DNA of 64,000 nucleotides from an uncultured Clostridia bacterium (GCA_947366895.1 CANBBP010000005.1:1-64000); one strand, 5' to 3'. Counted from the stretch's first letter, positions 4,431 through 57,018 are shown. Numbers and translations: made by a program. The notes: generated by a model not told the origin, from the sequence alone.

Positions 4431-5300
4431 AAAATCGAGTTTTTTATATATAAAACGATATAAACATATAAAACCTAAATCTTTTTTTATAATAAATCGA
4501 TATATTCATAATATATCTAATATAAACCTATAAAAAACGATATTTTATAAATTAATCTAAATTTATTTTAAATAAAACTCGATAATTTCATAAATAAAAT
4601 AAACTAATCTAAAAAAAATCGATATTTTCTAACAAAAACTTAAGTAATTCATTTAAAAAACTGATATATACATATAAAAACAAAATTAAACTAAAAAAAA
4701 TCGATATATTAATACAAAACTCGATATTTTCAATACTGCTTTTAAATATAAAAATCGATTTAATCTAAAATAATCTGATTTAATCTAAATAAACTCGATA
4801 TTTTCTAATAATACTTTAATTCCTTTTTTTAAAAAACGATATTTTTATAAATAAAATAATTCAATCTTATAAAAAACAATATATAAATAAAAAAAACGAT
4901 ATAATAATATATATATTTACAATAAAAAGCGATTTAATATAATAAAAGCTAAATAAATCTAACATAAACTAAAATAATCGTAAAAAACCTGATATATTCT
5001 AATACAACACGATATAATCTAATAAAACCTGTTAAAACATGTTTCAATTCTAAATAAATAGATATAATATAATAAAACTCGTTAAAACCTGATTTAATTA
5101 AAAATATATCGATATAAACTAATAAATCACGAAGTAATAATATAAAATCTTAATTATTCCAATAAAACCCGATATTTTTTAAATAAAGACTGAGTATTTC
5201 ATTTTAAAAAACTGATATATTCATAAAAAAACTGATATATTCTAAATAAAATCGATATATTAATATAAAATCCGATTTTTTACATTATTGGGTTTTTTCA
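4431..5300. repeat. ~0.9-kb AT-rich array of about 35-40 degenerate ~20-bp tandem repeats, consensus roughly AAAAYYGATATATTCTAATA
   Basis: Many spaced copies of aaaa(t/c)cgatat(a)tt, aaaactgatatattc, aaaacctgatatattctaat and similar at ~15-25-bp intervals. No ORF occupies the region. It lies between the HAD gene start and the rplJ promoter. Confidence 0.8.
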
Positions 5301-5383
5301 TTTTATATTTTAAAAATTCAAAAATATATTAAACTTAATTTACTAAATTGTTTATTTTCTTTTTAATTATACATAATAAAGTA

Positions 5384-5412
5384 TTGACAAAGCATAAGCA
5401 TTAATATATAAT
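5384..5412 (+). promoter_or_regulatory. Consensus sigma-A promoter of rplJ-rplL (TTGACA, 17-bp spacer, TATAAT)
   Basis: Exact -35 TTGACA at 5384-5389 and exact -10 TATAAT at 5407-5412. Confidence 0.75.
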
Positions 5413-5598
5413 TCTATTGTTTTAATAAATATCTTATTTATCAAAGACAGCAAGTGAAGGTAAACTTCGTAATTCTTTTTTAAAAAGTTCTTGCCGAGGT
5501 AAGTAATGAGGAAATTTTTTCTTTTAATTTAAGATAGTTTTACCTTGTACTTACTTTGAGTATAAGGTTTTTTTATTTTAACTTAAAAGGAGAAGTAG
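5413..5598 (+). promoter_or_regulatory. rplJ 5' leader, likely the autoregulatory L10 leader element
   Basis: ~185-nt untranslated leader between the consensus promoter and the rplJ ATG. Firmicute rplJ leaders are known L10(L12)4-binding regulatory RNAs, but the structure was not verified here. Confidence 0.45.
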
Positions 5599-8678: not shown

Positions 8679-9668
8679 TTAACTTTCTTCTATATTTTCT
8701 ATCTTATTTTCATTATTAAATTTTATATTATAAACCTTTGCGTATTTTACTGGCTTTGAATAATAAATCAATGCTATTTCTTCTGGGTTGTATTCAGGTG
8801 ATAAGGTTTGATAAGGCTTTTCAAAATTTCCAAAAAACTTGTTTAGATGGTTGTTTGATAATTTACTTGATAGGGCAGGGGAAAGATAGTTTCTAGCTAG
8901 TTTAAAATTTTTATTTTTTAATGCTTCAAAAAAAGCAAAAGGAACAAACTCTTTAATTTTGGTTATTGTTGGTTTTTGGTTGTTGTATGCTAATTCTTTT
9001 GTTTTATTAAATGCATTTTCAAATGAGTATGTTGTAATTTCTCCGTGATTTGCGTAGTCATGTAAATTTTTATAAGTAGTTATTGTGTTTTCATTTCCTT
9101 CTAATAAATCAACTTCTTGCATTTCTTGTAAAAAGTATTTATTGTTTTCGTATAAAATATGACAAGTAACAAATTTTGAATTTTGAGTGCGAAAATATAT
9201 TAAAATATTACCATCTTTAATTTTTGCTTCCATATCTGTTACTTTACAATTATTTCTAAAATCTAAATAGTTTGTAGAATTTTCTATTCGACAATTAAGA
9301 TAATTATTACTAAACCAACTTATGGTATGAGGGGTGTTTTGAGAACGGATTACTTTTGTTTTAAGACCAAACCCAACTGGTGAATTTGCAAAGATAAAAG
9401 GATTAACTTCCAATAAAAAATTATTATTTGGAAAACGAGTTAATGTTAGGTTACTCATATTAGTTTGAAGTGAGTTTTCATTGAAAGGTTCTAAAATGCA
9501 CGAAAATGGCAAAGAGTTTAACTCTTCTGAAAATGATGGGTAAAAAGATAAGGCGGTTTTATCTTTTAAAATAAATGAATAGGTCTTATTTTTTATAAGA
9601 CTTTTTTGATTATCATAGTAGTTTAATACGCAATCAAAACTAGGCTTTATGTGTAAGTAGAAATCCAT
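8679..9668 (-). CDS. Hypothetical protein, N/Y/F-rich, 329 aa
   Basis: Long ORF with no recognisable motif. Confidence 0.5.
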   Translation of the reverse strand: MDFYLHIKPSFDCVLNYYDNQKSLIKNKTYSFILKDKTALSFYPSFSEELNSLPFSCILEPFNENSLQTNMSNLTLTRFPNNNFLLEVNPFIFANSPVGFGLKTKVIRSQNTPHTISWFSNNYLNCRIENSTNYLDFRNNCKVTDMEAKIKDGNILIYFRTQNSKFVTCHILYENNKYFLQEMQEVDLLEGNENTITTYKNLHDYANHGEITTYSFENAFNKTKELAYNNQKPTITKIKEFVPFAFFEALKNKNFKLARNYLSPALSSKLSNNHLNKFFGNFEKPYQTLSPEYNPEEIALIYYSKPVKYAKVYNIKFNNENKIENIEES

Positions 9669-9776
9669 ATATATCTCCTTATTAATATGAATATGACAAG
9701 CATTTATTGTTTTATGTATAGAAATAAATTTCTAGATAATAATTACTAAGAAGTTAAATTTATTTAAGGAGATTTT

Positions 9777-10559
9777 ATGAATAAAAAAGAGGACAGGCAA
9801 AGAAAGATGCTAGAAATTGTTAAAAAATGTATAGACAATAATTATAATCTTGACAAGACCTTTGATATGATTTCTAGTAAATTGAAACTTAAAAAAGGTA
9901 GTGCAAAAAATTATTATTATACTTTTATTAAGTCTATTAAAAATGACCCTAACAAATATCAAAAATTGGATATAGAAAAATTATCAAAAAATAATTTTAA
10001 TAGATTTGAAGAAACAGAAATTAATGAACTTGTAACTATAGTTGATAATAATTTAATGAAAGGTATCAGTGTAAGGCAAACATGTTTAGAACTTGCAAAT
10101 AATGATGCAAAGGTAATGTTAAGATTACAAAACAAATATAGAAATTGTAAGCATAATGGGAGCAAAAAAAATATGGGAAACAAAGAAAATATTATTAATA
10201 TAGATTTTGCAAAACAAAAGTTAAATAAAAAAATTAGTGATAGTGATATTAATGCCTTATTTATGGGACTTGTAAAAATAGTTAAAAAGAGTGCTTTAGA
10301 TAGTGCTAATCAAGAATTAAAAGTTGAATGTAATGAGGCAAATGAAAATTTTAGACAAACTTTAATAGATTTAAATAAAAAAGAAGAAGAACTTAAAATA
10401 ATGCAAGAAGTAAATAGAGAACTTAATTTAAAAGTAGAGGCACAAAAAGAACAAATTTGTTCGTTGTTGCAAAAACTTTCAAGTAGGAGGCTTAAAAGCT
10501 TAGAAAAGAAAAGCGATTATAAAACTATGAAATTAAAAAAGTTTGATTTAAGTAAATGA
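9777..10559 (+). CDS. Hypothetical coiled-coil protein, 260 aa
   Basis: K/E/N-rich with heptad-like segments in the C-terminal half. RBS ggagattttATG. Confidence 0.5.
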   Translation: MNKKEDRQRKMLEIVKKCIDNNYNLDKTFDMISSKLKLKKGSAKNYYYTFIKSIKNDPNKYQKLDIEKLSKNNFNRFEETEINELVTIVDNNLMKGISVRQTCLELANNDAKVMLRLQNKYRNCKHNGSKKNMGNKENIINIDFAKQKLNKKISDSDINALFMGLVKIVKKSALDSANQELKVECNEANENFRQTLIDLNKKEEELKIMQEVNRELNLKVEAQKEQICSLLQKLSSRRLKSLEKKSDYKTMKLKKFDLSK

Positions 10560-10651
10560 TTTATTAAATAATTAAATATATAATTGCTAGTAAGGATTTA
10601 AAAAAAATAAGGTTATAGTCACTAACATTTGAAACTAGCGGAATAATTAAA

Positions 10652-10681
10652 GAGAACTCTATAGTTTTAGAGTTCTTTTTC
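10652..10681. terminator. Hairpin with T-run just inside the left end of the island
   Basis: Stem gaactcta / tagagttc, loop tagttt, then ttttt. Confidence 0.45.
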
Positions 10682-10713
10682 TTGTGGCTTTATGCCGCGA
10701 AAGGTTCTTTACT

Positions 10714-10837
10714 CAGGGCTTAAGAATGGAACATAATAGACAAAAGGCAAAAAGAAAAAAGCGAAAGTATCTTCGCTTTAATAGCATAATGCTTGTTTCT
10801 TTGTCTTATTTGCAGAGATTATCATTCTAAGCCCTGT
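10714..10837. repeat. ~124-nt long imperfect palindrome (nested inverted repeats) downstream of the recombinase gene
   Basis: Outer arms cagggcttaagaatg / cattctaagccctg (15 bp, 1 indel). Inner arms aatagacaaa / tttgtcttatt. Central hairpin agcgaa-agtatc-ttcgct. Confidence 0.6.
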
Positions 10838-10871
10838 GTCAAGAACATCGTGGAATAAATTAGCCACAAGT

Positions 10872-12374
10872 CTAAATAACCACATAAATATCATAAGTAT
10901 TGGTTTTAGTTTTAATAATGCCACCTTTGAAGTGTCTTTCGGTTGTGTAAGTTTCTGTAAATACTTTTTGAGTTATCGGCTCATTACTTGCCATTTGGTT
11001 TATTGCGTAATTTATACCTATTTCAATTTTGTTCTCATAAACTTTCACAAACTTTATGAATAATTCAAACGCCATATTTGGACATTGTTTCATAGTGTAT
11101 TTGAAGAAGTTTTGTATATCTTCTTTTGTTAGTTCATATCTCTCTTTAGATTGCTCTATAATAACTTTCTCTTGCAAGTCTTTCTTTGCGTTTTCAAGTT
11201 CTTCTAATCTTGCTTTTGTTGTTTCGGTAAATATGCCTTTTTCAATAGCTGACATAATATTTGCAATGGATGTATTTACTCGTTGTAAATCGGTTTTTAA
11301 TGCGTTTAATGGTGTATTGCTACCAATCCTTTTCTTATGCACTTCAAATATCTTTTCAGTCAATATTTCAAGGTTTTTAGGTGTATTGAATTGTTCTATT
11401 AAGAATTTGTCTACAACACCCTCAATAAAGTCCTTATGCAATCTTTTATTATGACAGTTATCTTTCTTTGTTCCTATGCAATTATAGTATCTCAAATGTT
11501 CGCCATTAGAAGATATTGCAGATACTGGATACATTTTCTTATTGCAATAACCACAATATATTTTGTCTTTTAGTTTAAATATTTCATGATTATCTTTTCT
11601 GCAACCATATCTATTTTTATCCATTCTTTCTTTAACCTTTGTGAATAGTTCTTTTGTTATTATTTGTGGGTAGATATTGTCATATCGTTTGCCATTTATC
11701 TCATATTCGCCAGTGTATAGTTTTCTTTGTAGAAAATGTCTTATTGTTTGTGGTATAAACTTTTGACCTTTATTTGTAATGCTTTCATTCTCTAAATCTT
11801 TAGATATTTGCAATATTGTTTTGCCACTTGCATAATCTTTGTAAATTCTATTTAATATTTCACTTTCTTCTTGGTTTACTTTTAACATTTTGTTTTCTTT
11901 AATGTAGCCATAAGGAACACTGCCAATACAATGTCCTTTCATTCGTGATTCGTGTAGTCCACGACTTACTTTTTGTGCTAATTCTTCACTAAAGTATTGG
12001 TTCATTCCTTCTAGCAAACTTTCAAGTAAAACTCCTTCTGGTGTTTCTGGTATATTTTCCATTGCAGATAAAAGTTTAATTCCATTATCTTTTAAGTGTT
12101 TTCTATGAATTGCTGACTCGTATTTGTTTCTTGCAAATCTGTCTAGTTTGTAAACTAATACATAGTCCCATTTCTTGTTATTGCTATCTTTTAGCATTCT
12201 TTGAAAAGATTCTCTTTCATCTGTTGTTCCACTGATTGCTCGGTCAATGTATGAATCAACGATTATTATATCGTTTCTTTTCGCATAGTCTTGGCAGACA
12301 TGAACTTGTCCCTCTATGCTTTGTTCTGTTTGGTTTGTGCTAGAGTATCTAGCGTAGATTACTGCTGTTTTCAT
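10872..12374 (-). CDS. Large serine recombinase (resolvase catalytic domain + recombinase domain + zinc-ribbon region), 500 aa
   Basis: N-terminal MKTAVIYARYSSTNQ... carrying the catalytic Ser/Arg resolvase signature. Its length and the Cys-rich segment (CGYCNKKM ... YYNC ... C.N.K) fit large serine recombinases. Confidence 0.85.
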   Translation of the reverse strand: MKTAVIYARYSSTNQTEQSIEGQVHVCQDYAKRNDIIIVDSYIDRAISGTTDERESFQRMLKDSNNKKWDYVLVYKLDRFARNKYESAIHRKHLKDNGIKLLSAMENIPETPEGVLLESLLEGMNQYFSEELAQKVSRGLHESRMKGHCIGSVPYGYIKENKMLKVNQEESEILNRIYKDYASGKTILQISKDLENESITNKGQKFIPQTIRHFLQRKLYTGEYEINGKRYDNIYPQIITKELFTKVKERMDKNRYGCRKDNHEIFKLKDKIYCGYCNKKMYPVSAISSNGEHLRYYNCIGTKKDNCHNKRLHKDFIEGVVDKFLIEQFNTPKNLEILTEKIFEVHKKRIGSNTPLNALKTDLQRVNTSIANIMSAIEKGIFTETTKARLEELENAKKDLQEKVIIEQSKERYELTKEDIQNFFKYTMKQCPNMAFELFIKFVKVYENKIEIGINYAINQMASNEPITQKVFTETYTTERHFKGGIIKTKTNTYDIYVVI

Positions 12375-12554
12375 TTTTTCTAAACTCCTTTATATTTTTT
12401 ATTTGTCTTTCGACGGAGCGAAACTAAACGAAAGCGGATTCTTGTTTTAAACTTTTAAATATATATATTTTTTAGTCAAGGTTTGCGAAAAGCAATACAC
12501 TTTAACCTTGACTAAAAAGAGTTTTCGTTTACGCTCCACAAGGCGAAAGATAAA

Positions 12555-13442
12555 TTAGTTGGTTGTTCTCAACTGAGATATTGTTTCTTTACTTACTTTT
12601 CCCACCAAGACACCTTCATCCCAACAATTAAAGTCATCAAATAAAAGTAGTTTTCTATCTTCAATTCCAATAGTGCAAACAATATCACTATCCATAATGT
12701 CTGATATGAAATAGGTCGGTAGTCCTTTTGAGTAAACAATTTTTTCTTCGGTCTTTGCTAAATATTTCATTATATAGGCGATAGATTGTGCCAAAGAATT
12801 TGGGGCTATTGGCTCAAAGTCGTTCCTTCCAAATCTATCTAAAAAATATTGGTTTTGATATGTCGTTTGCATTTGATGTGTTTTTGTGCTGAAATCTCGT
12901 TTTTCTATAAACTCTAAATTGTTGTTTGGTATATACACAAGTGTGTGAAAGTGTAGCCTTTTATTTATTGGACTTCGTTCCCAAACACCTGCATATTTCC
13001 AACTTTTGCGATTAGATAAATGTTTTAGACAATTAGACAACTTCGTTTTAAATGACTCTTCGTTGTGCTTTTTGTCATCATAAGTAAATGTGCAAAAATA
13101 TGACCATTCTTGTAAGTAAACTTTTCTTACAAATCTTTTTCTTCTTTCAATTAAATTTCTTAACTTTCTGTCTAAATTAACTTTTACAAACTCTCTTAAT
13201 CTTTCTTCGTTCTTTATATATGGCTTTAAACTTTCAATAATTTCGATGTTTCTTTCTCGTGGCTTTTTATCTAAATTTTCTCTATATGTCTTTTCAAAAA
13301 GTTTGTTTAAATTTGTTGTCGATGTTTCTAAATTTTCTTTCTTAATAGTGTTAGTTTTCCGTTTTTTGTGTGGTTGTAATTCTTTGGGTATTGCAATGTA
13401 ATGGCTACCATCGAAATACACTTTTGTTTCTCCAAATGGCAT
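12555..13442 (-). CDS. Rolling-circle replication initiator of the HUH superfamily with a phiX174-type double-tyrosine motif
   Basis: Motif 1 FTFTYDD, motif 2 HFHTLVY (HUH), and motif 3 AYIMKYLAK, which is Y-x-x-K-Y-x-x-K as in phiX gpA (YVAKYVNK). Confidence 0.7.
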   Translation of the reverse strand: MPFGETKVYFDGSHYIAIPKELQPHKKRKTNTIKKENLETSTTNLNKLFEKTYRENLDKKPRERNIEIIESLKPYIKNEERLREFVKVNLDRKLRNLIERRKRFVRKVYLQEWSYFCTFTYDDKKHNEESFKTKLSNCLKHLSNRKSWKYAGVWERSPINKRLHFHTLVYIPNNNLEFIEKRDFSTKTHQMQTTYQNQYFLDRFGRNDFEPIAPNSLAQSIAYIMKYLAKTEEKIVYSKGLPTYFISDIMDSDIVCTIGIEDRKLLLFDDFNCWDEGVLVGKVSKETISQLRTTN

Positions 13443-13443
13443 A

Positions 13444-13599
13444 TTACACCTGCCTTTTGGATGGTTTCTCTTTTATTTTGCGGTGTTGCATAATGTGATC
13501 TAGTAGTGCAAGATAAAACGATTCATCTAAGCCACCAACATCAATTAAATTTTGAGAGAAATCCTTATTGTTTGATTTGTTTTTAAAAATGTTTTGCAT
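13444..13599 (-). CDS. Small 51-aa ORF immediately upstream of, and overlapping, the rep start
   Basis: RBS aaaggagg 9 nt before the ATG. Its stop overlaps the rep start region (translational coupling). No known motif. Confidence 0.3.
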   Translation of the reverse strand: MQNIFKNKSNNKDFSQNLIDVGGLDESFYLALLDHIMQHRKIKEKPSKRQV

Positions 13600-14107
13600 T
13601 TTTCATTGCCTCCTTTTAGTTTTTTGGCAATTAAAAAAGGCATAGAAAGAAAATACTTCTTCTACGCCTTTGAAATGCAACCACTGTTTCTTAAACGAAA
13701 ATCTCGGCTTGCCATTTTTGCGTGTCTTTTTCAATTACTTTTGTAAATGTATCACAAACAATTTCAAAATAAAATGATATTACTTGCCCCTTAGTAGTCA
13801 TCTTATTGATTTTGATTGCTAACACTTGACACTATGTTAGCAAGTTGTTCGTTAAAATACAACGAACTAACTTAAACAAAACTTCTAATAAATCCGTAGT
13901 AAACCCTAACTAAATTTAAACTGACTTAAAGTAAAACCCAAATTTTTTAAGTGTTTGTGAAATATTTACGAGTAGAATATCTCACAAAAATCTCGGAATT
14001 ACAAGATGGTTTACTGGTAGTTTACAAGTAATAAACAGGTATTTTGCGGACAAAATGCGAACTTTTGCAATGCATTTACACTTAATAGCCACAAAAACAT
14101 TAAAAAG

Positions 14108-14136
14108 TTGACGGTCTAACTGAAACTTTTTAATAT
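14108..14136 (+). promoter_or_regulatory. Candidate sigma-A promoter (TTGACG, 17-bp spacer, TAATAT) facing the hairpin cluster and R-M operon, bracketed by a 14-bp direct repeat
   Basis: -35 at 14108-14113 and -10 at 14131-14136. Direct repeats aatagccac(a/g)aaaa at 14084-14097 and 14146-14159. Confidence 0.4.
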
Positions 14137-14236
14137 CTTCTATATAATAGCCACGAAAAAGCCATTTTGAGCGGGTGTTTTTACAAAAAAATTTATAAAC
14201 TTAAAAATTTATGTTAAAAAGCAAAACAAAAGAGAA

Positions 14237-14398
14237 AGTGGGCGAAGAAAAAAGTGGAGGTGCGATAGCCTGCGGCACTCCACTTTTTGCCCACTTTCGT
14301 TTTGCGAAAGGTTTGTTTATATTTAGTTGTTTTAGTTTAGGCGTGTGCTTGTCTGCTGGAGCGAAGCGACAGCACTTGTATCAAGACAAGCACACGCC
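14237..14398. other. Cluster of three GC-rich stem-loops inside an AT-rich island; candidate rolling-circle origin (dso or sso)
   Basis: Nested hairpin with outer stem aagtgggc/gcccactt and inner stem aaaaagtggag/ctccacttttt (14249-14259 / 14278-14288). Hairpin ctttcg-ttttg-cgaaag (14294-14310). 15-bp perfect inverted repeat ggcgtgtgcttgtct / agacaagcacacgcc (14340-14354 / 14384-14398). Confidence 0.45.
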
Positions 14399-14514
14399 TG
14401 AGTGCCATTTTATTTAAAATTTTATAAAATAAGTCAACGATTGCTTGCAAAAATCATATCATTTATGTTATATTAAAAGTAAAGAAAGTAAAGATTTTTT
14501 AAGGAGCAAAAAAT

Positions 14515-14724
14515 ATGATAAAGCAAGCGAAGTTATCAAATAAATGCCAAATAACAGTTCCGAAAGAGGTTAGGAAATTGTTGGAGATTGATAAGGGAGA
14601 TGATGTCGTTTTTTATATTGAAGATAATGAGGTAAAACTAACCAGTATTAAAAACATTAATCTAAAACTAAAGAACCCAAAAAAGAAAACAACAATGAAA
14701 AAAGGAGAAAATAACAATGGATAA
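14515..14724 (+). CDS. AbrB/MazE/SpoVT-family small DNA-binding protein, 69 aa; first gene of the R-M operon
   Basis: Swapped-hairpin signature QITVPKEVRKLLEIDKGDDVVFYIEDNEVKL. RBS aaggagc. Overlaps the hsdM start by 8 nt. Confidence 0.7.
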   Translation: MIKQAKLSNKCQITVPKEVRKLLEIDKGDDVVFYIEDNEVKLTSIKNINLKLKNPKKKTTMKKGENNNG

Positions 14725-16444
14725 ACAAAAGATTGACAACAAGGCAAGTTTGATATGGAGCATCGCAGATAAACTTCAAGGAGATTATAAGCCTCATGAA
14801 TATGGAGATGTTATTCTTCCATTTACTGTGCTTAAAAGGTTTGATAGCGTCCTTGCCGACACTAAAGATAAGGTTATTAAAGTAGCATCTGAATATCCAG
14901 TTATTACTCCACCTGTTGACAAACTTCTTAAAAGTGTAGCAAAACAACAAATATACAATATAAGCAAATATAATTTTAAAAATTTGCTTGACGACCCTGA
15001 TAATATAAAAATCAACTTTAAAAAATATATTGCTGGCTTTTCTGAAGAAGTAAAAGATATCTTAAGTAAAGAGCATGGGTTTGAGTTTGATAGACAAATT
15101 GAAAAACTAGACAATGCGGGTTTGTTATATTTGATAATTGCCGAATTTAATACCGAAAAGGCAGATTTACACCCTAACAAAGTTAGCGATATTGAAATGG
15201 GGTATATTTTTGAGGAAGTAATTAGAAAATTTAGTGAAACATATCAGGCTGATGCTGGAGAATTCTACACCCCAAGAGAAATTATTGATTTAATGGTTAA
15301 TTTACTTTTAAATAATGAAGAATTAAGTGAAAACAATAAGGTAATACAAATATATGACGGAGCGTGTGGCACTGGTGGGATGTTGTCTATCGCCTACGAA
15401 CGAATCAAGGAACTAAATAGTACAAATGCCGTTTTTACAAATGGGCAAGAAATTAACCCTCAAACTTATGCTATTTGTAAAAGTGATATGCTACTTAAAG
15501 GTGGTAAAAATTCAACAATTAAATTTGGTAGTACCCTTTCGAACGATCAATTTTCTGAAGAACAATTTGATTATATTATTATGAATCCACCTTTTGGTAG
15601 AGAATGGAAAAAAGACAAGGAAGAAGTTGAAAAGGAATATAAGCGTGGTTTTGCTGGTAGATTTGGTGCAGGATTGCCTGCAGTTAGTGATAGTCAAATG
15701 TTATTTTTGCAAAATGCTATTTCAAAAATGAAACCAAGTGGAAGTAGAGTTGCAATAATACATAATGGTTCTGCTTTATTTGCTGGTGATGCAGAAAGTG
15801 GACCAAGTGAAATTAGAAGATATATAATTGAAAATGACTTGCTTGAAGCCATTATTCAATTACCAAACAACATCTTTTATAATACTGGAATAGCTACATA
15901 TATTTGGCTATTGTCAAATAAAAAATCAAAAGAAAGAGTTGGTAAAATTCAACTTATAAATGCAAATGAAATGTTTGTAAAGCGACGCAAGGTTTTAGGC
16001 GAAAAGCGAAATGACATTTCAAAGACGCAAATTGAGGATATAACCAAACTTTATGATGATTTTAAAGAAGCCGATAACAGCAAAATATTAGACAACGAAG
16101 ATTTTAAGTATTTTAAAGTTGTAGTTGAAACGCCGATTAAAGATGAAAAAAGCAACATTATATTAGATAAAAAAGGCAAAAAACAACCTGATATAAATTT
16201 AAGAGATTTTGAGATTATACCAGCGAAAGAAAATATTGAAGCATTTATGCAAAAAAATGTTTATCCTTTCAACCCTGATGCTTATATAGATAAAGACAAA
16301 ACTAAAGTTGGTTATGAAATTCCTTTTACAAGGTTATTTTATAAATTTATTCCACCTACTCCATCAAAGGCTATCTTTGCTGAAATTAAAGAGCTTGAAA
16401 AACAAGAAACCACTTTAATGAAGGAGTTATTTAGCAATGATTAA
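14717..16444 (+). CDS. hsdM: Type I restriction-modification system, methyltransferase subunit
   Basis: N6-adenine methyltransferase motif IV NPPFG (IIMNPPFGREW) and a SAM-binding region DGACGTGGML; 575 aa. Confidence 0.9.
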   Translation: MDKQKIDNKASLIWSIADKLQGDYKPHEYGDVILPFTVLKRFDSVLADTKDKVIKVASEYPVITPPVDKLLKSVAKQQIYNISKYNFKNLLDDPDNIKINFKKYIAGFSEEVKDILSKEHGFEFDRQIEKLDNAGLLYLIIAEFNTEKADLHPNKVSDIEMGYIFEEVIRKFSETYQADAGEFYTPREIIDLMVNLLLNNEELSENNKVIQIYDGACGTGGMLSIAYERIKELNSTNAVFTNGQEINPQTYAICKSDMLLKGGKNSTIKFGSTLSNDQFSEEQFDYIIMNPPFGREWKKDKEEVEKEYKRGFAGRFGAGLPAVSDSQMLFLQNAISKMKPSGSRVAIIHNGSALFAGDAESGPSEIRRYIIENDLLEAIIQLPNNIFYNTGIATYIWLLSNKKSKERVGKIQLINANEMFVKRRKVLGEKRNDISKTQIEDITKLYDDFKEADNSKILDNEDFKYFKVVVETPIKDEKSNIILDKKGKKQPDINLRDFEIIPAKENIEAFMQKNVYPFNPDAYIDKDKTKVGYEIPFTRLFYKFIPPTPSKAIFAEIKELEKQETTLMKELFSND

Positions 16445-17687
16445 GATGAAAGAAAGTGGTGTTGAATGGATTGGACAAATTCCTGAAGACTGGAAATTAA
16501 AAAGATTGAAAATAGTTTTACAGGAAAGAAATGAAAATAATAATCCTGTTAAAACAGATTATATATTGTCATTGACAAATGATAAAGGAGTTATTCCATA
16601 CTCTGAAAAAGGCGATATTGGTAATAAATCTAAAGATGATATTACTGGGTATAAGTTAGCTTATCCAAATGATATTGTGCTAAACAGCATGAATGTTGTT
16701 ATTGGTTCGGTCGGTATTTCCAACTATTTTGGAGCTGTAAGTCCAGTTTATTATATGTTAAGACCAAGAAATAAAAATGACGATGTAAGGTATTATAATT
16801 ATATTTTTCAGACAAAAGAATTTCAAAATAAGTTAAAGGGTTATGGGAATGGAATTCTAGAAATAAGAATGAGAATTCAGATGTTAAAATTAAACACTGT
16901 AGAGTTACCTGTTCCATCAAGTGAAGAGCAAGTAAAAATCGCTGATTTTCTTGATAAAAAATGTTCGCAAATTAATGCACTTATAAAAATTCAAGAAAAA
17001 GAAATTGAAAAGATTAAACAATATAAACAAGCCGTTATAAGCGAAGTTGTAACAAAAGGCTTAGACCGTAGTGTGAAAATGAAAGATAGTGGCGTTGAAT
17101 GGATAGGCGAAGTCCCTGTAGATTGGGAAGTAAAAAAATTAAAATTTTGTTATAAAAACAGAAATACTAAGTATACATTAGGAGAATTCCCATATATTGC
17201 ATTGGAAAATATAGAATCTTTTAGTGGGAAATATGTTTACACTGAGACAAATTCAAATTATTTACTTGAAGGTTCAATTATTGCGACTAAGGGAGATGTG
17301 ATATTTGGTAAGCTTAGACCGTATTTAACAAAAGCATTTCTAATTGAATCTGATTCTTGTGTATCTACAGAATTTGCAGTATTTTATTCAAATGAGAATA
17401 ATTCAGAATTTTTAAAATATTTATTTTTAAGCTATAGATTTATAGACATAATAAACTCTTCTACATATGGGACAAAGATGCCAAGAGCGAATATTGATTT
17501 TATAAATAATCTAGAGATAGCTTTACCAAATTTAAAAACCCAGCAAGAAATATCGGAGTATCTTGAAAAAAAATCAAATGAAATAGATAACTTAATACAA
17601 ATAAAGAAATTTAAAATTCAAAAACTTCAAGATTATCAAAAATCTTTAATATACGAATATGTAACAGGTAAAAAGAGGTGTATTTAA
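16437..17687 (+). CDS. hsdS: Type I restriction-modification system, specificity subunit
   Basis: Two target-recognition halves, each preceded by the conserved repeat MK(E/D)SGVEWIG(Q/E).P.DW. Overlaps hsdM by 8 nt and hsdR by 10 nt. Confidence 0.85.
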   Translation: MIKMKESGVEWIGQIPEDWKLKRLKIVLQERNENNNPVKTDYILSLTNDKGVIPYSEKGDIGNKSKDDITGYKLAYPNDIVLNSMNVVIGSVGISNYFGAVSPVYYMLRPRNKNDDVRYYNYIFQTKEFQNKLKGYGNGILEIRMRIQMLKLNTVELPVPSSEEQVKIADFLDKKCSQINALIKIQEKEIEKIKQYKQAVISEVVTKGLDRSVKMKDSGVEWIGEVPVDWEVKKLKFCYKNRNTKYTLGEFPYIALENIESFSGKYVYTETNSNYLLEGSIIATKGDVIFGKLRPYLTKAFLIESDSCVSTEFAVFYSNENNSEFLKYLFLSYRFIDIINSSTYGTKMPRANIDFINNLEIALPNLKTQQEISEYLEKKSNEIDNLIQIKKFKIQKLQDYQKSLIYEYVTGKKRCI

Positions 17688-20647
17688 TGGAAACAAAAGA
17701 AAAGAATTATGAAGCGTTCATTGAAAGATATTTAACCACTACAGGTGGCTATATAAAAGATAATGGTTCTGGTTATGACAATAAAATTGGAATAATTACA
17801 CCTGATTTATTTTCTTTTATTAAAACCACTCAACCTAAAGAATGGAAAAGGGTTCAGGATAGTCAAGGCTCTCAAGCAGAGATATATTTTATTGATAGAC
17901 TGAAGAAAAATATTGATGAATATGGATTTTTACATGTTTTACGCAACGGAATTAAACTGAATGGAGTTACAATAAAACTTATTTTCTTCAAGCCAGAGAC
18001 TGAAATCAATCCAGATAGTATCAAATTATATAATCAAAACATTTGCAAGCTTGTTCGTCAATTACACTATTCATATCTAAATAATAATAGTCTTGATACC
18101 GTGCTTTTTGTAAATGGTTTTCCAATTGCAACAATTGAATTGAAAAACGAGTTTACTGGACAAACTTGTCAAGATGCTATACGACAATACAAATACGATA
18201 GGGACCCAAATGAAGTTATATTTCAATTTAATAAAAGGTCTTTAGTGCATTTCGCAGTTGATTTGCAAGAAGTATATATGACAACAAAATTGAATAGTAC
18301 ATCAACAAAATTTTTGCCATTTAACCAAGGCTCAAATGGTGCAGGTAAAGTTGGTGGTAAGGGTAATCCAATAAATGAAAATGGTTTTGCAACTGCTTAT
18401 TTGTGGGAGAATGTTTTAAATAAAGATAGTCTTTTTGATATATTAAATAAATATATACAATTGGAAGTTAAGAAAAACAAAAAAACTGGCGAAATTAAAA
18501 AGACTTTGATTTTCCCTAGATATCATCAGTTGGATGTTGTAAGAAAGTTAATAGCAGATGCAAAAGCAAATGGTGCTGGAAAAAATTATTTAATTCAACA
18601 TAGTGCAGGAAGTGGAAAAAGTAATAGTATTGCATGGCTTGCTTATCGTCTTGCAACTTTACATGACAGTAATGATAATACAATTTTTGATAGCGTAGTG
18701 GTTATTACAGACAGAAGAGTTCTTGACCAACAACTTCAAGATAATATCTATCAGTTTGAGCATACTCTAGGCTTTATAGAAAAAATTGACAAGAACAAAA
18801 CCAGCCAAGATTTATTGAAAGCAATAAATGCGGGCAAAAAAATAATAATTACAACATTACAAAAATTTCCTATTATTTATAAAGACATTGAATCTCAACA
18901 TAAGCATTTTGCAGTTATAATAGATGAGGCTCATTCATCTCAGACTGGTAATAGTGCAAAAAAACTTAAAGCTGGTTTAGGAGATTTGGAAGAAGCAATA
19001 AAAATTGAGAATGAACTGGAACAAAAAACCTCTGAAGATGAAGATAAATTGCTTTTTGAACTTGCAAGTCAGGGAAAACAAAAAAATCTATCATTCTTTG
19101 CTTTTACTGCAACTCCAAAAGCCAAAACTCTTCAAATATTTGGAACAAAAACTGAAGAAGGTAAATTTGTTCCCTTCCATATATATTCAATGCAACAGGC
19201 AATTGAAGAAGGCTTTATTTTAGATGTTTTGCAAAATTATATGACTTATAGCACATTTTATAAGTTGGTTAAAAAGACAAATGAAGACCCTGAATTTGAT
19301 GCTAGTAAAGGAATTAAAGAACTTGTAAGGTTTGAGACTTTGCATCCTACCAACATATCTCAAAAAACAGCAATTATTATAGAGCAATTTTTAAACACAA
19401 CCGCCAACAAAATAAACGGAAAAGCAAAAGCTATGGTTGTTACTCCATCGAGATTGCATGCGGTAAAATATGTAAATGCTTTTAAAGAATATATTAAAAA
19501 GATATCTATGGAAGACAAAATTAAGGTGTTAGTTGCCTTTTCTGGCGAAGTTTTTGACCCTGACACAAAAGAGACTTATACGGAGCCAGGGATAAATAAG
19601 ATAAGCGAAAGCCAATTGCCTGAAGCTTTTGAAGAAGAATACAATGTATTAATAGTTGCTGAAAAATATCAAACAGGATTTGACCAACCATTGCTCCATA
19701 CGATGTTTGTTGATAAAAAACTTTCTGGAATAAAAGCTGTTCAAACTCTTTCACGACTTAATAGAATCTGTGAAGGTAAAACTGATACTTTCGTTTTGGA
19801 CTTTGTAAATAAAGCTGAAGATATACAAAATTCGTTCCAAGACTTTTACCAAGGCACTGTGTTGACAGAAGGTTTTGATGTTAATAATGTTTATGATATT
19901 TATGGCAGATTGGAGGCATATAAACTGGCTGATATAAATGACATAAATGGATTCGCTGAATTATATTATTCAAATTCTGAAGATATGGGTAAATTAAGCT
20001 CTTATTTGTATAGGGCAAAAGAAAAATATATTGTTCTTGAAAAGAATGATAAACACGAATTTAAATCTATTATGCAAGCATTTTTACGAAATTATAATTT
20101 CGTTACTCAAGTAACTCGTATGAATGATAAAGAATTGCAATCGGCATACATTTATTATAAATATCTAAATCAGTTTCTTCCAAAAGACAACGCCAAATCA
20201 GTAGATGTTAAAGATTTAGTCGAGTTAGAGTTCTATAAGCTTGAAAAGAAGTTTGAAGGAAGCATAACTCTTACAAAAGAACAAGCCGAAATTGAGCCTC
20301 CTACTGGAAATATCGGCAAAAAAGGTGAAACGGCAAAGAGTAAATTGAGCGAAATTATCAATAAAATTAATCAAAAGTATCAGACAAAGTTCACGAATAT
20401 GGATAAAGTCTTTGAGCAAATCGAAAACGATTATTTAAATGATGATAGAATGAAAGCATTTGCTAAAAACAACGAAGAAAAAGCATTTAAAAAAGTTTAT
20501 GATATCGAGTTTGAAAACAAAGCGATACAAAGATATGAGCAAAATAGCGAATTATTTAAGATTTTATTTACTGACGAAGAATTTATGAATGATATTAAAT
20601 CAGCTTTATTTAAAGCAATTTATAGTAAATTAAAACAATCTCAATAA
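17678..20647 (+). CDS. hsdR: Type I restriction enzyme, restriction (helicase-nuclease) subunit
   Basis: 989 aa. Helicase motif I AGSGKSNS and motif II DEAH (AVIIDEAHSSQTG). Size and operon context fit a type I R subunit. Confidence 0.85.
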   Translation: MYLMETKEKNYEAFIERYLTTTGGYIKDNGSGYDNKIGIITPDLFSFIKTTQPKEWKRVQDSQGSQAEIYFIDRLKKNIDEYGFLHVLRNGIKLNGVTIKLIFFKPETEINPDSIKLYNQNICKLVRQLHYSYLNNNSLDTVLFVNGFPIATIELKNEFTGQTCQDAIRQYKYDRDPNEVIFQFNKRSLVHFAVDLQEVYMTTKLNSTSTKFLPFNQGSNGAGKVGGKGNPINENGFATAYLWENVLNKDSLFDILNKYIQLEVKKNKKTGEIKKTLIFPRYHQLDVVRKLIADAKANGAGKNYLIQHSAGSGKSNSIAWLAYRLATLHDSNDNTIFDSVVVITDRRVLDQQLQDNIYQFEHTLGFIEKIDKNKTSQDLLKAINAGKKIIITTLQKFPIIYKDIESQHKHFAVIIDEAHSSQTGNSAKKLKAGLGDLEEAIKIENELEQKTSEDEDKLLFELASQGKQKNLSFFAFTATPKAKTLQIFGTKTEEGKFVPFHIYSMQQAIEEGFILDVLQNYMTYSTFYKLVKKTNEDPEFDASKGIKELVRFETLHPTNISQKTAIIIEQFLNTTANKINGKAKAMVVTPSRLHAVKYVNAFKEYIKKISMEDKIKVLVAFSGEVFDPDTKETYTEPGINKISESQLPEAFEEEYNVLIVAEKYQTGFDQPLLHTMFVDKKLSGIKAVQTLSRLNRICEGKTDTFVLDFVNKAEDIQNSFQDFYQGTVLTEGFDVNNVYDIYGRLEAYKLADINDINGFAELYYSNSEDMGKLSSYLYRAKEKYIVLEKNDKHEFKSIMQAFLRNYNFVTQVTRMNDKELQSAYIYYKYLNQFLPKDNAKSVDVKDLVELEFYKLEKKFEGSITLTKEQAEIEPPTGNIGKKGETAKSKLSEIINKINQKYQTKFTNMDKVFEQIENDYLNDDRMKAFAKNNEEKAFKKVYDIEFENKAIQRYEQNSELFKILFTDEEFMNDIKSALFKAIYSKLKQSQ

Positions 20648-20660
20648 ATCTTTTAATAAA

Positions 20661-20692
20661 AAAGACATACTAAATAAATAGTATGTCTTTTT
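20661..20692 (+). terminator. Rho-independent terminator after hsdR
   Basis: Stem gacatact / agtatgtc, loop aaataaat, then ttttt. Confidence 0.75.
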
Positions 20693-20805
20693 CGCTAGTT
20701 TCAAAGTTTATAACCTATATAACTTTATTTTTTTTGTTAAGTTTTATTTAATAAGTAAAGTTAAAAATAATTGAAAAATGCAAGAAGTTATGATATAGTT
20801 TTTAT

Positions 20806-23800
20806 ATGCAAAATATATTTATAGGAAAAACAAATATTGATTGTGTTACAAGTTTAATAGAAAAATTAAAACAAAATTATTTAACAAATAAAAATGCACA
20901 TCATATTTTTATAGTACCAGATAGAGTATCTGTTTTAACGGAGATTAAAATATTTGAAGCTCTTAATATTGAAAGTACTTGCTCAATAGAGGTTCAAACT
21001 TTATCAAGAATTGCTTCACAGGTTGTTGATAATGTAAGAGTTATTCCTAAAACTTCTAGTTGTATGCTTTTTCAAAAACTTTTAAAACAATATAGAAATG
21101 ATTTAAAATGTTTTAATAAAAAGATAGATATTGATTTAGCTTCAACATTATATAAAACAATCAGCCAGTTTAAGAGTTGTAAAATTGCTCCTGAGGAAGT
21201 AAATGTAACAACTCAAAATAAACTATTAGAAGATAAATTAAACGATATTGCTATTCTTTATTCTGCCTATCAAAGACACTTAAGAGAAAATGAATTGCTT
21301 GACAGCATGGATAGACTTGATTTTGTAATAGATAAAATTTCACAAAATGAAAAGATAAAAAATAGTTTTGTATATATAGGTTTTTTTGATGCTTTTACTT
21401 TGCAAGGTTATCAAATTATAAGTGGCATTATTAATAGTTGTATAGAATTTAATATAGGCTTAACCAGCACCGATAATAGTATTAATGAACATATTTATGA
21501 TAATGCTTTAAAAGATAATATTTTAAAAATTATGGAGGCACAAAATAAAGAACCTAATATAATTTTTTGTAAAGAAAATGTTAGCGGTCAATTTAAGTAT
21601 TTGCAAGATAATTTATATGGCTTTAATTATTATCCATTAAAGTTAAAAGAAAGTAATATTCGCTTATTTGAAGGAAAAACATTTGAAGAAGAAGTTTTAT
21701 TTTGTTGTAGTAATATCAAAAATTTAATTGAAAGTGGAAAATATAAGTTTAAAGATTTTGTTGTGGCTGTTCCTAATTTATTGGAAAAACATAATGAAAT
21801 AGAAAGAATTTTTAATTCTTATAATTTTAATTTTTATATAGATATTTCTGAAAATCTTGCTAATAGTATTCTTGTTAGATTTATTGACCAACTTGTTCAA
21901 GTTGTGTTAGAAAACTTTTCAAGGGTTAGTGTATTATCGTTTATAAAAAATAAATTATTAAATTTGGATTATAATGATATTGAAGATTTTGAAGATTACA
22001 TAATTAAATATAATTTAAATAATGGTTATCAAATAAAAAATAGTAAAATAGAAAACAGCAAATTTTATTCAGGTTTTAATAATTGTAGAAATGCTTTATT
22101 TGATATGACTAGCGAATTTATTGATGATATTAAAAATAGTAAAACCTATAATGATTTTATTTTGAGTTTAGAGAAAATTCTTTTAAAATTAAACATACCT
22201 GAAAAACTTGTTGATTATACTATTTATTACACAAGTATAAATAATATTAAACAGGCCAAATTATTTGAGCAATATTATAATAATTTAACAACCGTTTTAG
22301 ATTCATTGCGAGAAATTCTTGGCAATGAGGAATGTGATTTTAAATTGTTTTATTCCACTTTACTAAGTGGAATAAGTGAAACAAAAATTTCGACTCCACC
22401 TTTATCTACAAATGCTATATTTATAGGTGATGCAAGTACTAGCTTTTTTGATAATTCCAAAGTTTATTTTATTCTTAATGCTGATGAAAAAAGTTTTCCT
22501 TTTTCTATGAATGATTGTGGTATTATTAGTGATAAAGAGATAAATCAATTAAATGATTATTACAAACTTGAACCTAGTATACAAAGTATAAATAGCAAAG
22601 AAAGATTTAAAAGTTTTGAACTTATATTAAAAGCAAAAGAAAAGTTATTTATAAGTTATAATTTTAGTGTTTCACCAAAAAGTAAAATATTAGATGATAT
22701 ATCTAAAATGTTTATAATTGAAGAAAGCAATAATAAATTTAAAACTTTACAATTAGATAATTATAATAGACAAGATTTTTATGTTATTAATAACAATTTA
22801 TCTACTGCAAGTAATAATCTTATTTCTAAACTTCGTGAAGTTTATGATGGCAAAGGTGATGCAGATGAAAAGGTTGCTATTTTATTTAATGCTGTAAATA
22901 GAACTAAAAAGGTTGTTGACCTTAAAAAGTTTGACTTTAAAAATATTATAAATTTAAGTAATAATGTTTTTTTTACAAAAGATAGCATAAGTGTCTCACA
23001 GGTAGAAAATTATATGACCTGTCCGTTTATTCATTTTGTGCGATTTGGTTTAAATTTAAAAGAAAAAGATATAGGAGAATTGGATAACTTAAATATCGGA
23101 AATATATTACACAATGTAGCAAAGGTATTTATTGATAATAATTCTTTACCATTAAAATCTGAAAAAGAGATAGGCGTTAATGTTGAAAAAGCATTTAATG
23201 AAGTTATAAATAGAGATGTTTATGAAAGTGTAAAAAATAATTTATTAAATAAAGTATTAATAAAAAATCTTTTAAGTGAGGCTAAAAGATTTTGTAGTAT
23301 TTTAAATTATCAAGCAAAGTTTTCTTCCTTTAAATCTTTTAAAACGGAGATTAGATTTGATGATAATGGTATTATAAAAAGTTTAAAAATTAATTTGGGA
23401 AATCGTATATTAAAGTTAGTTGGACAAGTTGATAGAATTGATGTGTTTGAAGATTATTTTAGAATTATAGATTATAAAACAGGAAAGTGCGATACCTCTT
23501 TAAAAGAACTTTTCTTTGGTAAAAAAGTTCAGTTAGAAGCTTATTTAAAAGTAATAGAAAGTAGTTTAAAGTTAAAACCTGCAGGTGCTTATTATATGCC
23601 TGTAAAAAGTGGTATTGCAGATGAAAATAGTTCTTTGCAATTAAAGTATCAATTAAAAGGTAGAACCATTGATAATGAAAAAATAATTGTTGCTAGCGAT
23701 AATAGATTAGCAGGTGAAGAACTTACAAGCGACATTATAGACATAAAGTATAATAAAAAAGATGAAAAAGAAGAAAAAAAATTAAGTGCTTATTCTAAAG

Positions 23801-56875: not shown

Positions 56876-57018
56876 AAATTATACCTATAAAGAGTGTGTT
56901 AGGGACAAGCCCGATTGTAGCACACAGCAACCTGTTTATATTAACAAGGTGCTAATACTTGATTGATGGGATATTAATTTAATTATGAGAAAAATCCTAT
57001 CTATAAATCTAGATAGGG
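56876..57018 (+). ncRNA. SAM-I (S-box) riboswitch with intrinsic terminator upstream of metK
   Basis: Conserved S-box blocks tta.agggac.agcccgat..gcaacc and aaggtgctaa, followed by terminator cctatcta/tagatagg plus a T-run. Confidence 0.7.

Follow-up and report, generated by a model that had tools for sequence, protein, structure and literature searches.

A probable 10.1-kb integrative element with a serine integrase, a rolling-circle Rep and a type I restriction-modification system in an uncultured Clostridia bacterium

The DNA analysed here, referred to as the window, is a 64,000-nucleotide stretch from an uncultured Clostridia bacterium (GCA_947366895.1, CANBBP010000005.1:1-64000). The segment from about 10617 to 20718 is very probably a 10.1-kb integrative element that was inserted by its own large serine recombinase into a palindromic, terminator-like attachment site (attB) between a hypothetical gene and addB, and we further infer that its Rep protein nicks the DNA and drives rolling-circle replication and, possibly, mobilization. 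Integration and boundaries are well supported, and the origin at which Rep would act is well located. A first-pass annotation, made from the sequence alone, had read this region as an integrated element, and this is supported by a copy at a second site, by a related metagenome-assembled genome (MAG) in which the flanking genes are adjacent, and by matching junctions.

Between two short inverted repeats lie, in order, the genes for the serine recombinase and Rep, a coupled open reading frame (ORF) of 51 amino acids (aa), a non-coding stretch of 0.9 kb that contains GC-rich hairpins, a gene for an AbrB/MazE-fold protein, and hsdM, hsdS and hsdR. The gene content claimed earlier (a 500-aa serine recombinase, an HUH Rep, an AbrB/MazE-like protein and hsdM-hsdS-hsdR) was recovered by domain search, and the comparison of base composition that had been suggested gave a GC content of 0.28-0.33 within the element versus 0.22-0.25 in the flanks.

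Copies at Other Loci

A search with Rep found 3533 relatives, the closest of which (98% amino-acid identity) is encoded at locus L004, a 274-kb JGI contig from another metagenome. Here the same gene set lies between the thymidylate kinase gene (tmk) and a YhhN gene, and the same 13-bp repeat is present at both ends. By blastn the window matches this copy at 93.6% identity over 10628-16444 and at 95.4% over 17567-20745, and only the target-recognition parts of hsdS are unrelated. Because a collinear copy is found at a different site, the whole 10.1 kb, restriction genes included, has moved as one piece.

The first-pass annotation had pointed to an empty site or to variation at the junction as the way to verify insertion. 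Besides the different location of the unit in L004, there is a MAG from a related species of Clostridia (L003; its AddB is 61% identical) in which only a 36-bp spacer separates addB from the preceding homologues of the 239-, 329- and 260-aa genes, and which serves at the genus level as a putative empty site. A more distant element of about 10.2 kb (L005; Rep 73% and integrase 68% identical) lies between ileS and an acpS-like gene and has different cargo, namely a UvrD-like helicase, radical-SAM/PqqD genes and a peptidase. Its 13-mer inverted repeat differs in sequence (TTGAAACAAGTGT / ACACTTGTTTCAA) yet is found at equivalent positions. Two further loci, L013 and L027 (integrase 76% identical), comprise the integrase-side end only, carrying GCTAGTTTCAAA. 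The repeat that was expected at homologous element ends is present in L004, in L005 as another 13-mer, and in L013 and L027.

As judged from these sequence comparisons, the element has been mobile as a whole, with ends of serine-integrase architecture and insertions that leave only a 2-bp core in common. It has an integrase of its own, defined attachment (att) ends and mobility between sites, as is expected of integrative mobilizable elements (IMEs).

Inverted Repeats and Attachment Sites

The 13-bp repeat tttgaaactagcg is located at 10628-10640 and its exact reverse complement cgctagtttcaaa at 20693-20705, as first reported, together with an imperfect extension that includes ggttata/tataacc farther out than the 13-mers (10612-10618 and 20710-20716). 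When the two intergenic flanks (312 x 158 bp) were compared, an inverted match without mismatches, 13 bp long or longer, was obtained in 0.77% of 3000 equally spaced window pairs and in 0.73% of shuffles. The repeat is therefore unlikely by chance, as had been thought, but the original estimate of 1e-3 or less was about ten times too low. In addition, 900 bp scanned against 20 kb of the AT-rich window DNA yields several 13-mers by chance. Since inverted matches of 13 bp arise by chance in such DNA, repeat length alone proves little; decisive support for a meaning of the repeat comes from its conserved position, not from its length. The repeats are subterminal, the junctions being located 11 bp beyond each of them, at 10615-16 and 20717-18. 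The two attachment sites are:

10595-10640, no strand assigned: attL, consisting of host B arm (about 10595-10614, AAAAAAAATAAGGTT), core AT (10615-10616) and P' arm (10617-10640)
20693-20740, no strand assigned: attR, consisting of P arm (13-bp CGCTAGTTTCAAA at 20693-20705 and 11-nt GTTTATAACCT at 20706-20716), core AT (20717-20718) and host B' arm (ATAACTTTATTTTTTTT)

The P' arm is composed of the 11-nt AGTCACTAACA and the 13-bp repeat TTTGAAACTAGCG. On the left, homology to L004, L005, L013 and L027 breaks at the attL positions, and on the right identity with L004 continues through 20718 and then ends. The junctions of all five elements (window, L004, L005, L013, L027) are in register: a 13-mer, 11 nt of element DNA, a dinucleotide, and then unrelated host DNA. 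TGACT forms the end of the 11 nt on the integrase side. As dinucleotide, the window and L004 have AT; L013, L027 and both sides of L005 have AA. A target duplication beyond the 2-bp core is absent, only the core being common to attL and attR. This comparison places the crossover at the AT core, 11 bp outside each repeat, and the 13-bp repeats are therefore the distal parts of the P and P' arms. The earlier suggestion that they are attL/attR half-sites thus stands in this form, and its alternative, terminal inverted repeats of a transposon, does not. Two other arrangements, the 13-mers as attB arms and a 10-nt spacer with a TA core, were dropped, as the two sides of L005 have the same core only if the spacer is 11 nt long. 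Neither does the region conform to a DDE transposon, in that domain search found no transposase among the element ORFs, the repeats lie 11 bp inside the junctions, and only the 2-bp core is in common.

Inverted arms around a 2-bp core are the standard attP layout of large serine integrases. The excised circle would carry such an attP of about 50 bp, CGCTAGTTTCAAA-GTTTATAACCT-AT-AGTCACTAACA-TTTGAAACTAGCG, and the sequence predicted across the junction is CGCTAGTTTCAAAGTTTATAACCT-AT-AGTCACTAACATTTGAAACTAGCG. Rejoining the host flanks of the window gives the attB AAAAAAAATAAGGTT-AT-ATAACTTTATTTTTTTT, predicted as a synthetic junction to read TTTAAAAAAAATAAGGTT-AT-ATAACTTTATTTTTTTTG. The attB of L004, in which the element is in the opposite orientation with Rep on the top strand, is AAAAAACACGGTT-AT-CCGTGTTTTTTT, and that of L005 is AAAAATATCAGCC-AA-CCGGTTGATATTTTTT. 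All three reconstructed attB sites are palindromes of A-tract, stem and T-tract with the core in the central 4 nt, i.e., at the apex, and the L004 site has the form of a bidirectional intrinsic terminator between convergent genes. The stems differ in sequence among the three, and T is found at +11, +12 and +15 from the core in eight of eight half-sites and at +10 and +13 in seven of eight. This small sample suggests that the integrase clade of the window may recognise the tracts that flank terminator-like palindromes. Integrases of about 40% identity within the same Rep-integrase family adjoin the 3' ends of tRNA or tmRNA genes, located downstream of the integrase gene in L021, L022, L025, L030, L038 and L068, so that target choice differs between integrase clades; the att model covers the window's clade and leaves out these relatives and their other sites. 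There is no tRNA gene in the 64-kb window.

Integrase, Rep and the Putative Origin

The genes and hairpins that would carry out recombination and replication are:

10872-12374, minus strand: large serine recombinase (integrase) of 500 aa, at the element end and directed outward
12555-13442, minus strand: HUH rolling-circle Rep of the two-tyrosine type, 295 aa, PF23343
13444-13599, minus strand: small ORF, 51 aa, translationally coupled to Rep
14340-14398, minus strand: putative double-strand origin or origin of transfer (oriT), a hairpin with a GGCGTGTGCTTGTC / GACAAGCACACGCC stem that encloses CTTGATA and an inner GC-rich hairpin
14238-14294, no strand assigned: second GC-rich hairpin next to the nick hairpin, as obtained by folding

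The integrase has a Resolvase domain (PF00239, E = 1e-28), a Recombinase domain (PF07508, E = 4e-16) and a Zn_ribbon_recom domain (PF13408, E = 1.5e-7), and it matches PHROG 95 (integrase) with E = 8e-96. The catalytic serine, on which the first interpretation had been made to depend, is present: Ser11 (in IYARYSSTNQ) aligns with the catalytic Ser12 of the TP901-1 integrase. Its best NCBIfam similarities are to CcrB, XisF and CcrA, all under the cut-offs.

In Rep, H164-F-H166 and Y223-x-x-K-Y227 (the HUH and YxxxY motifs) are invariant in 19 relatives, as is an FCTFT motif, and the protein has the HUH endonuclease fold. HUH chemistry with a YxxxY pair is also found in phiX174 gpA. The sole Pfam match of Rep is PF23343, which is present in 120 of 120 Rep relatives among the matches listed; the protein is thus not a member of Rep_1 (PF01446) or Phage_GPA, and it has no NCBIfam match. 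It has no sequence relative in PDB, and its PHROG match is weak. Rep would accordingly be an enzyme that works like those of the phiX174 gpA and pC194 Rep_1 families without belonging to them. Of the 18 integrase-type loci examined, 17 have an ORF of 40-64 aa that shares the motif ..FY..L..IL and terminates where Rep starts (none was found in L079). The 51-aa product in the window has no match in Pfam, PHROG or NCBIfam and is a candidate accessory or directionality factor.

The origin-like hairpins noted at first can be upheld for one hairpin, which carries the conserved nick motif CTTGATA at 14379-14385 on the minus, Rep-coding strand. A scan of metagenome contigs with the Rep alignment yielded 80 loci. 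A hairpin of the form GGCGTGTGCTTGTC - TTGATACAAG - GC-rich inner hairpin - GACAAGCACACGCC is found near Rep in about 70 of 87 related loci. Its outer stem shows compensatory changes across the related loci, and the nick motif in relatives is CTTGATA or a close variant such as CTTGAAC. The double-strand origins of pC194-type Rep_1 plasmids have CTTGATA as their conserved nick site (PMC10378824). Because the hairpin is conserved together with Rep and carries this pC194-type motif, it is likely to be the double-strand origin or oriT, located at 14340-14398, at which Rep would cleave. The region 14225-14415 folds with z = -8.7 relative to shuffles, and L005 has a hairpin of the same architecture in the same place as the second GC-rich hairpin.

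Other Structured Non-coding DNA

Two further regions are highly structured:

12375-12554, minus strand: conserved structured region of 180 nt between the Rep and integrase genes, a nested long hairpin with outer stem GTCTTTCG/CGAAAGAC and inner GTCAAGG..CCTTGAC
10684-10871, minus strand: long, imperfect hairpin (about 190 nt), which lies between the stop codon of the integrase gene and the end of the element

The intergenic structure is found at 62-98% nucleotide identity in all 22 loci in which Rep is followed by the integrase (L004, L005, L008, L010, L012, L013, L015, L017, L020-L022, L025, L027, L030, L036-L038, L055, L056, L068, L070, L079), the flanking proteins being about 40-55% identical in most of them, and it is better conserved than either Rep or the integrase. 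Pairing is retained in 81.6% of cells, with 25 double-change pairs versus 11.4 +/- 1.8 in shuffles, and slid controls score half of this value or less. The region 12375-12556 folds with z = -5.5 relative to shuffles, and L012 has two copies of the structure in opposite orientation. RNAalifold chose a local alternative pairing on this alignment, and the long-range structure was scored by hand instead. CCTTGAC was considered as the -35 box of an integrase promoter and rejected, as there is no -10 box at proper spacing, and no convincing promoter was found in 12375-12554. The structure is a candidate single-strand origin, single-strand promoter or integrase leader.

An independent 3.9-kb contig (ENA ERZ14235887 NODE_4130; L001/L002) has an identical left junction and ends in this structure, at about window position 12483; its assembly may have been broken at the hairpin or at a variant.

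The 10684-10871 hairpin folds as single-stranded DNA with -40.8 kcal/mol (z = -8.1 for 10680-10875). Its outer motifs (TTATTCCACG.TG.TCTTGACAC ... GTCAAGA.CCTTTCGCGGCATAAA) recur in L004, L005, L010, L056, L068 and L079, and the hairpin is absent from L013 and L027. A search of Rfam gave no match in 9500-21500 at E up to 1, so the hairpins of the element are not known RNAs.

Cargo Genes and Terminators

The cargo and the terminator-like hairpins at the two ends comprise:

14515-14724, plus strand: AbrB/MazE-fold (SpoVT-AbrB) protein, 69 aa, overlapping the start of hsdM (PF04014, E = 2e-10; TIGR01439)
14717-16444, plus strand: hsdM, type I methyltransferase (HsdM_N, N6_Mtase; TIGR00497)
16437-17687, plus strand: hsdS, specificity subunit with two target-recognition domains (Methylase_S, two stretches)
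17678-20647, plus strand: hsdR, restriction/translocase subunit (HSDR_N, SWI2_SNF2/ResIII, T1R_D3-like; TIGR00348)
10650-10681, plus strand: left terminator-like hairpin, AGAACTCTATAGTTTTAGAGTTCT followed by TTTTT (stem 10653-10676 in the terminator scan)
20657-20692, plus strand: right bidirectional terminator-like hairpin, AAAAAGACATACT...AGTATGTCTTTTT

With HsdM, a two-domain HsdS, and an HsdR that has nuclease and motor domains encoded in one operon, the cargo is a type I restriction-modification system, and the 69-aa AbrB-like protein is likely to be the regulator of this operon. An internal repeat is found in hsdS (16443-16532 and 17076-17165). The recognition domains of HsdS in the window (16445-17566) and in L004 (5882-7016) are unrelated, and only the central conserved region matches, at about 80%. 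As the copies are otherwise 93-95% identical, a swap of hsdS specificity within the element is implied.

The terminator reported just inside the right repeat was found again, and terminator-like hairpins are located just inside both ends. The left hairpin is placed such that it could stop host transcription from entering the element, and together the two would replace the host hairpin that was split by the insertion.

Distribution of the Rep Family

A serine integrase gene follows Rep in relatives of more than about 50% identity, and none does in relatives of the 340-aa type. The 340-aa branch comprises L023, L028, L033, L040, L053 and about 45 other loci (e.g., L053 4496-11240). In this branch the CTTGATA hairpin is on the strand opposite to Rep, 100-220 nt downstream of it. 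Genes upstream encode proteins of 360-730 aa with no Pfam or PHROG match, and downstream is defence cargo, either a DndC-like PAPS reductase with DUF4007 or an EcoRI-type methylase.

In an integrase-linked clade, L089-L093 (about 12570-20876), HaeIII-type restriction cargo lies beside a hypervariable stretch, which depending on the sample holds Hachiman (HamA and helicase), a SIR2 protein, DUF6414 or unknown genes. Located 6 kb upstream is another gene for a serine recombinase. The region has the appearance of a defence-island hotspot or of elements accreted in tandem.

Other Features of the Window

The 3' end of a 16S rRNA gene occupies positions 1-481, and no 23S, 5S or tRNA gene is found in the next 63 kb. 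Because neither a 23S nor a 5S gene follows the 16S gene within this distance, the rRNA genes appear to be unlinked. GC content falls to 0.16-0.20 in two places, just downstream of the 16S end (about 500-2000) and at 4500-5500. Two features that score above the Rfam gathering scores, a leader of ribosomal protein L10 (5423-5582) and a SAM riboswitch (56882-56991), are ordinary chromosomal ones.

Discussion

The closest known kind of element is the Firmicutes IME with a putative rolling-circle-type relaxase, of which a serine-integrase variant does not seem to have been clearly described before. IMEs of streptococci combine an integrase with a putative relaxase related to rolling-circle initiators, including the PHA00330 class, in a compact relaxase-excisionase-integrase layout (PMC5357655, PMC5704250). 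Those of the Rel_PHA00330 class have tyrosine integrases and an excisionase, usually a TcpA coupling protein, and their insertion sites are the 3' ends of tRNA genes or of ribosomal-protein genes (Coluzzi 2017, PMC5357655; Guedon 2017, PMC5704250). The element in the window resembles them in its compact module, which combines a small ORF with an HUH Rep-like protein and, at one end, an integrase that faces outward, in its variable cargo, in having no type IV secretion system (T4SS) genes, and in that the Rep is related to phage initiators. It differs from them in having a large serine recombinase, no coupling protein, and an intergenic palindrome as target. The statement in the first-pass annotation that this is not a textbook element type was thus overstated, since IMEs with an integrase and a rolling-circle-type Rep are known in streptococci, but those carry tyrosine integrases.

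Partial similarities to other systems are also found. With plasmids of the pC194/pUB110 family the element shares CTTGATA in a putative origin and long structured non-coding regions where single-strand origins are expected. In contrast to these plasmids and to phiX174 gpA, its Rep has no Rep_1 or Phage_GPA match, it is integrated by a serine integrase, and the nick motif lies inside a conserved three-way hairpin. The recombinase domain architecture, the attP of about 50 bp with a 2-bp core and the lack of a longer target duplication are as in TP901-1-type prophages, SCCmec (Ccr) and Tn4451/Tn5397. Unlike these, the element is neither a prophage nor an SCC, it carries a rolling-circle Rep and an origin, and its target is apparently the A/T tracts flanking a short palindrome and not one gene. 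Excision, HUH-type nicking, rolling-circle replication and structured single-strand origin regions, all of them only proposed for the element in the window, would be shared with ICEBs1 and Tn916 (PMC4595007, PMC5704250). ICEBs1 and Tn916 are however self-transmissible, have a size of 18-20 kb or larger, and use MobT/Rep_trans relaxases and tyrosine integrases, whereas the element in the window is without conjugation genes.

The propagation of such an element may be pictured as follows. It would excise by means of its serine integrase to give a circle with an attP of about 50 bp, after which the HUH Rep would nick the conserved hairpin at CTTG/ATA on the Rep-coding strand and drive rolling-circle replication of the excised circle. 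Rep may also pass a single strand to a co-resident conjugative element, which would make the element an IME in function; mobilization of this kind is purely an inference. Complementary-strand synthesis or early expression may be the function of the long conserved hairpins. Precedents for this life cycle are ICEBs1/Tn916 and rolling-circle plasmids (PMC5704250, PMC5703833, and PMC4595007, which places a single-strand origin in a chromosomally integrated rolling-circle element, ICEBs1).

Several observations do not fit easily with an IME of this kind. A palindromic core such as AT is unusual among serine integrases, and TA one base over is an alternative core for the copy in the window. In the P' arm the 6 nt between the 13-mer and TGACT (within window 10617-10627 and L004 12818-12828) are TGTTAG and ATGGAC, respectively, so that every position differs in surroundings that are about 94% identical. 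An exact empty site was not found: the flanking proteins of 260 and 329 aa are encoded solely on contigs that have this same junction, and the exact AddB is not on record. Nor was an excised circle found, the attP junction pattern having no match among IMG/VR viral contigs. No recombination directionality factor was identified, the 51-aa ORF next to Rep, which has no family match, being the only candidate. The strand-bias test on the intergenic structure showed no bias (68 G.T versus 72 A.C cells), and as these are near equal a single-stranded role is not supported by the test. Domain search revealed no coupling protein, canonical relaxase or T4SS gene among the element ORFs. Rep homologues are, moreover, absent from the 72,556 plasmids of PLSDB, and autonomous plasmid life is for this reason not documented for the family.

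The lack of a coupling protein or any other transfer gene is also what would be expected if the structure were as described but Rep did no more than maintain or amplify the excised circle. The element would then be an integrating rolling-circle plasmid that spreads by transformation or other routes, and not by conjugative mobilization. This is a possibility to which we give some weight, while considering it rather unlikely. The element has the nick motif of replicative plasmids of the pC194 type (PMC10378824), and the long hairpins are similar in size to single-strand origins. On the other hand, the absence from PLSDB speaks against a plasmid, rolling-circle Reps can double as relaxases and related IMEs are often without a coupling protein (PMC5704250), and one distant Rep relative is located near PcfJ/PcfK genes, which are typical of conjugative elements. 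It is improbable that the element is a satellite, or a remnant, of a phage with single-stranded DNA (Microviridae or inovirus-like), with Rep making single strands for packaging by a helper phage and one of the long hairpins acting as packaging signal. PF23343 does group phage replication proteins, there are several long imperfect hairpins, and a relative of Rep is encoded in one fecal 'Bacteriophage sp.' record and on one IMG/VR contig. The Rep family is otherwise almost absent from phage and IMG/VR collections, however, and in 2.9 million viral contigs (IMG/VR) a 21-mer of the nick hairpin has no match and a 17-mer has 14, of which 13 are chance matches within unrelated genes and one is genuine. 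Furthermore, the element has no capsid, coat or morphogenesis genes, only its integrase strongly matches PHROGs, and the cargo is a cellular defence system.

As Rep is a two-tyrosine HUH enzyme and motifs containing CTTG are present in three non-coding regions, it could be asked whether Rep moves the element by rolling-circle transposition of the IS91/Helitron type, the serine recombinase being a resolvase or invertase. We regard this as highly improbable, given that the element ends have no CTTGATA-like site and instead show the symmetric attP layout of a serine integrase (13-mer, 11 nt, 2-bp core), that the recombinase has full Recombinase and zinc-ribbon integrase domains, and that the nick hairpin is 3.7 kb from the nearest end. 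That inverted matches of 13 bp are not rare in this AT-rich DNA could finally mean that the repeat is fortuitous and the region a fixed genomic island or a mosaic, e.g., of a small Rep-integrase element beside an unrelated restriction operon. This can hardly be true and is refuted by the whole 10.1 kb, restriction genes included, being collinear between the same ends at another locus, and by the repeat position being conserved even where the repeat sequence differs.

Taking the integrative element as the preferred interpretation, a broader reading may be put forward tentatively and with considerable doubt. Rep, integrase, CTTGATA hairpin and intergenic structure together could define a widespread, undescribed family of small integrative rolling-circle elements that shuttle defence systems in gut Clostridia. 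Their serine integrases would insert at the apex of intrinsic-terminator palindromes by way of the flanking A/T tracts, and not of a gene-specific sequence, the elements bringing replacement terminators with them, and the intergenic structure would be a single-strand origin or a single-strand promoter, whereby the integrase could be expressed from incoming single-stranded DNA.

The finding extends the known range of integrative mobilizable elements and changes no textbook. If the reading holds, a function, a cognate origin motif (the CTTGATA hairpin) and a defined vehicle would be gained for a Rep family whose thousands of members in gut metagenomes are unannotated, the vehicle being an element of about 10 kb that carries restriction and other defence systems between Clostridia. 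A preference of the integrase for A/T-flanked, terminator-like palindromes would explain how harmless sites are found in many genomes, and it would constitute a testable specificity rule for large serine recombinases, a class of enzymes used in genome engineering.

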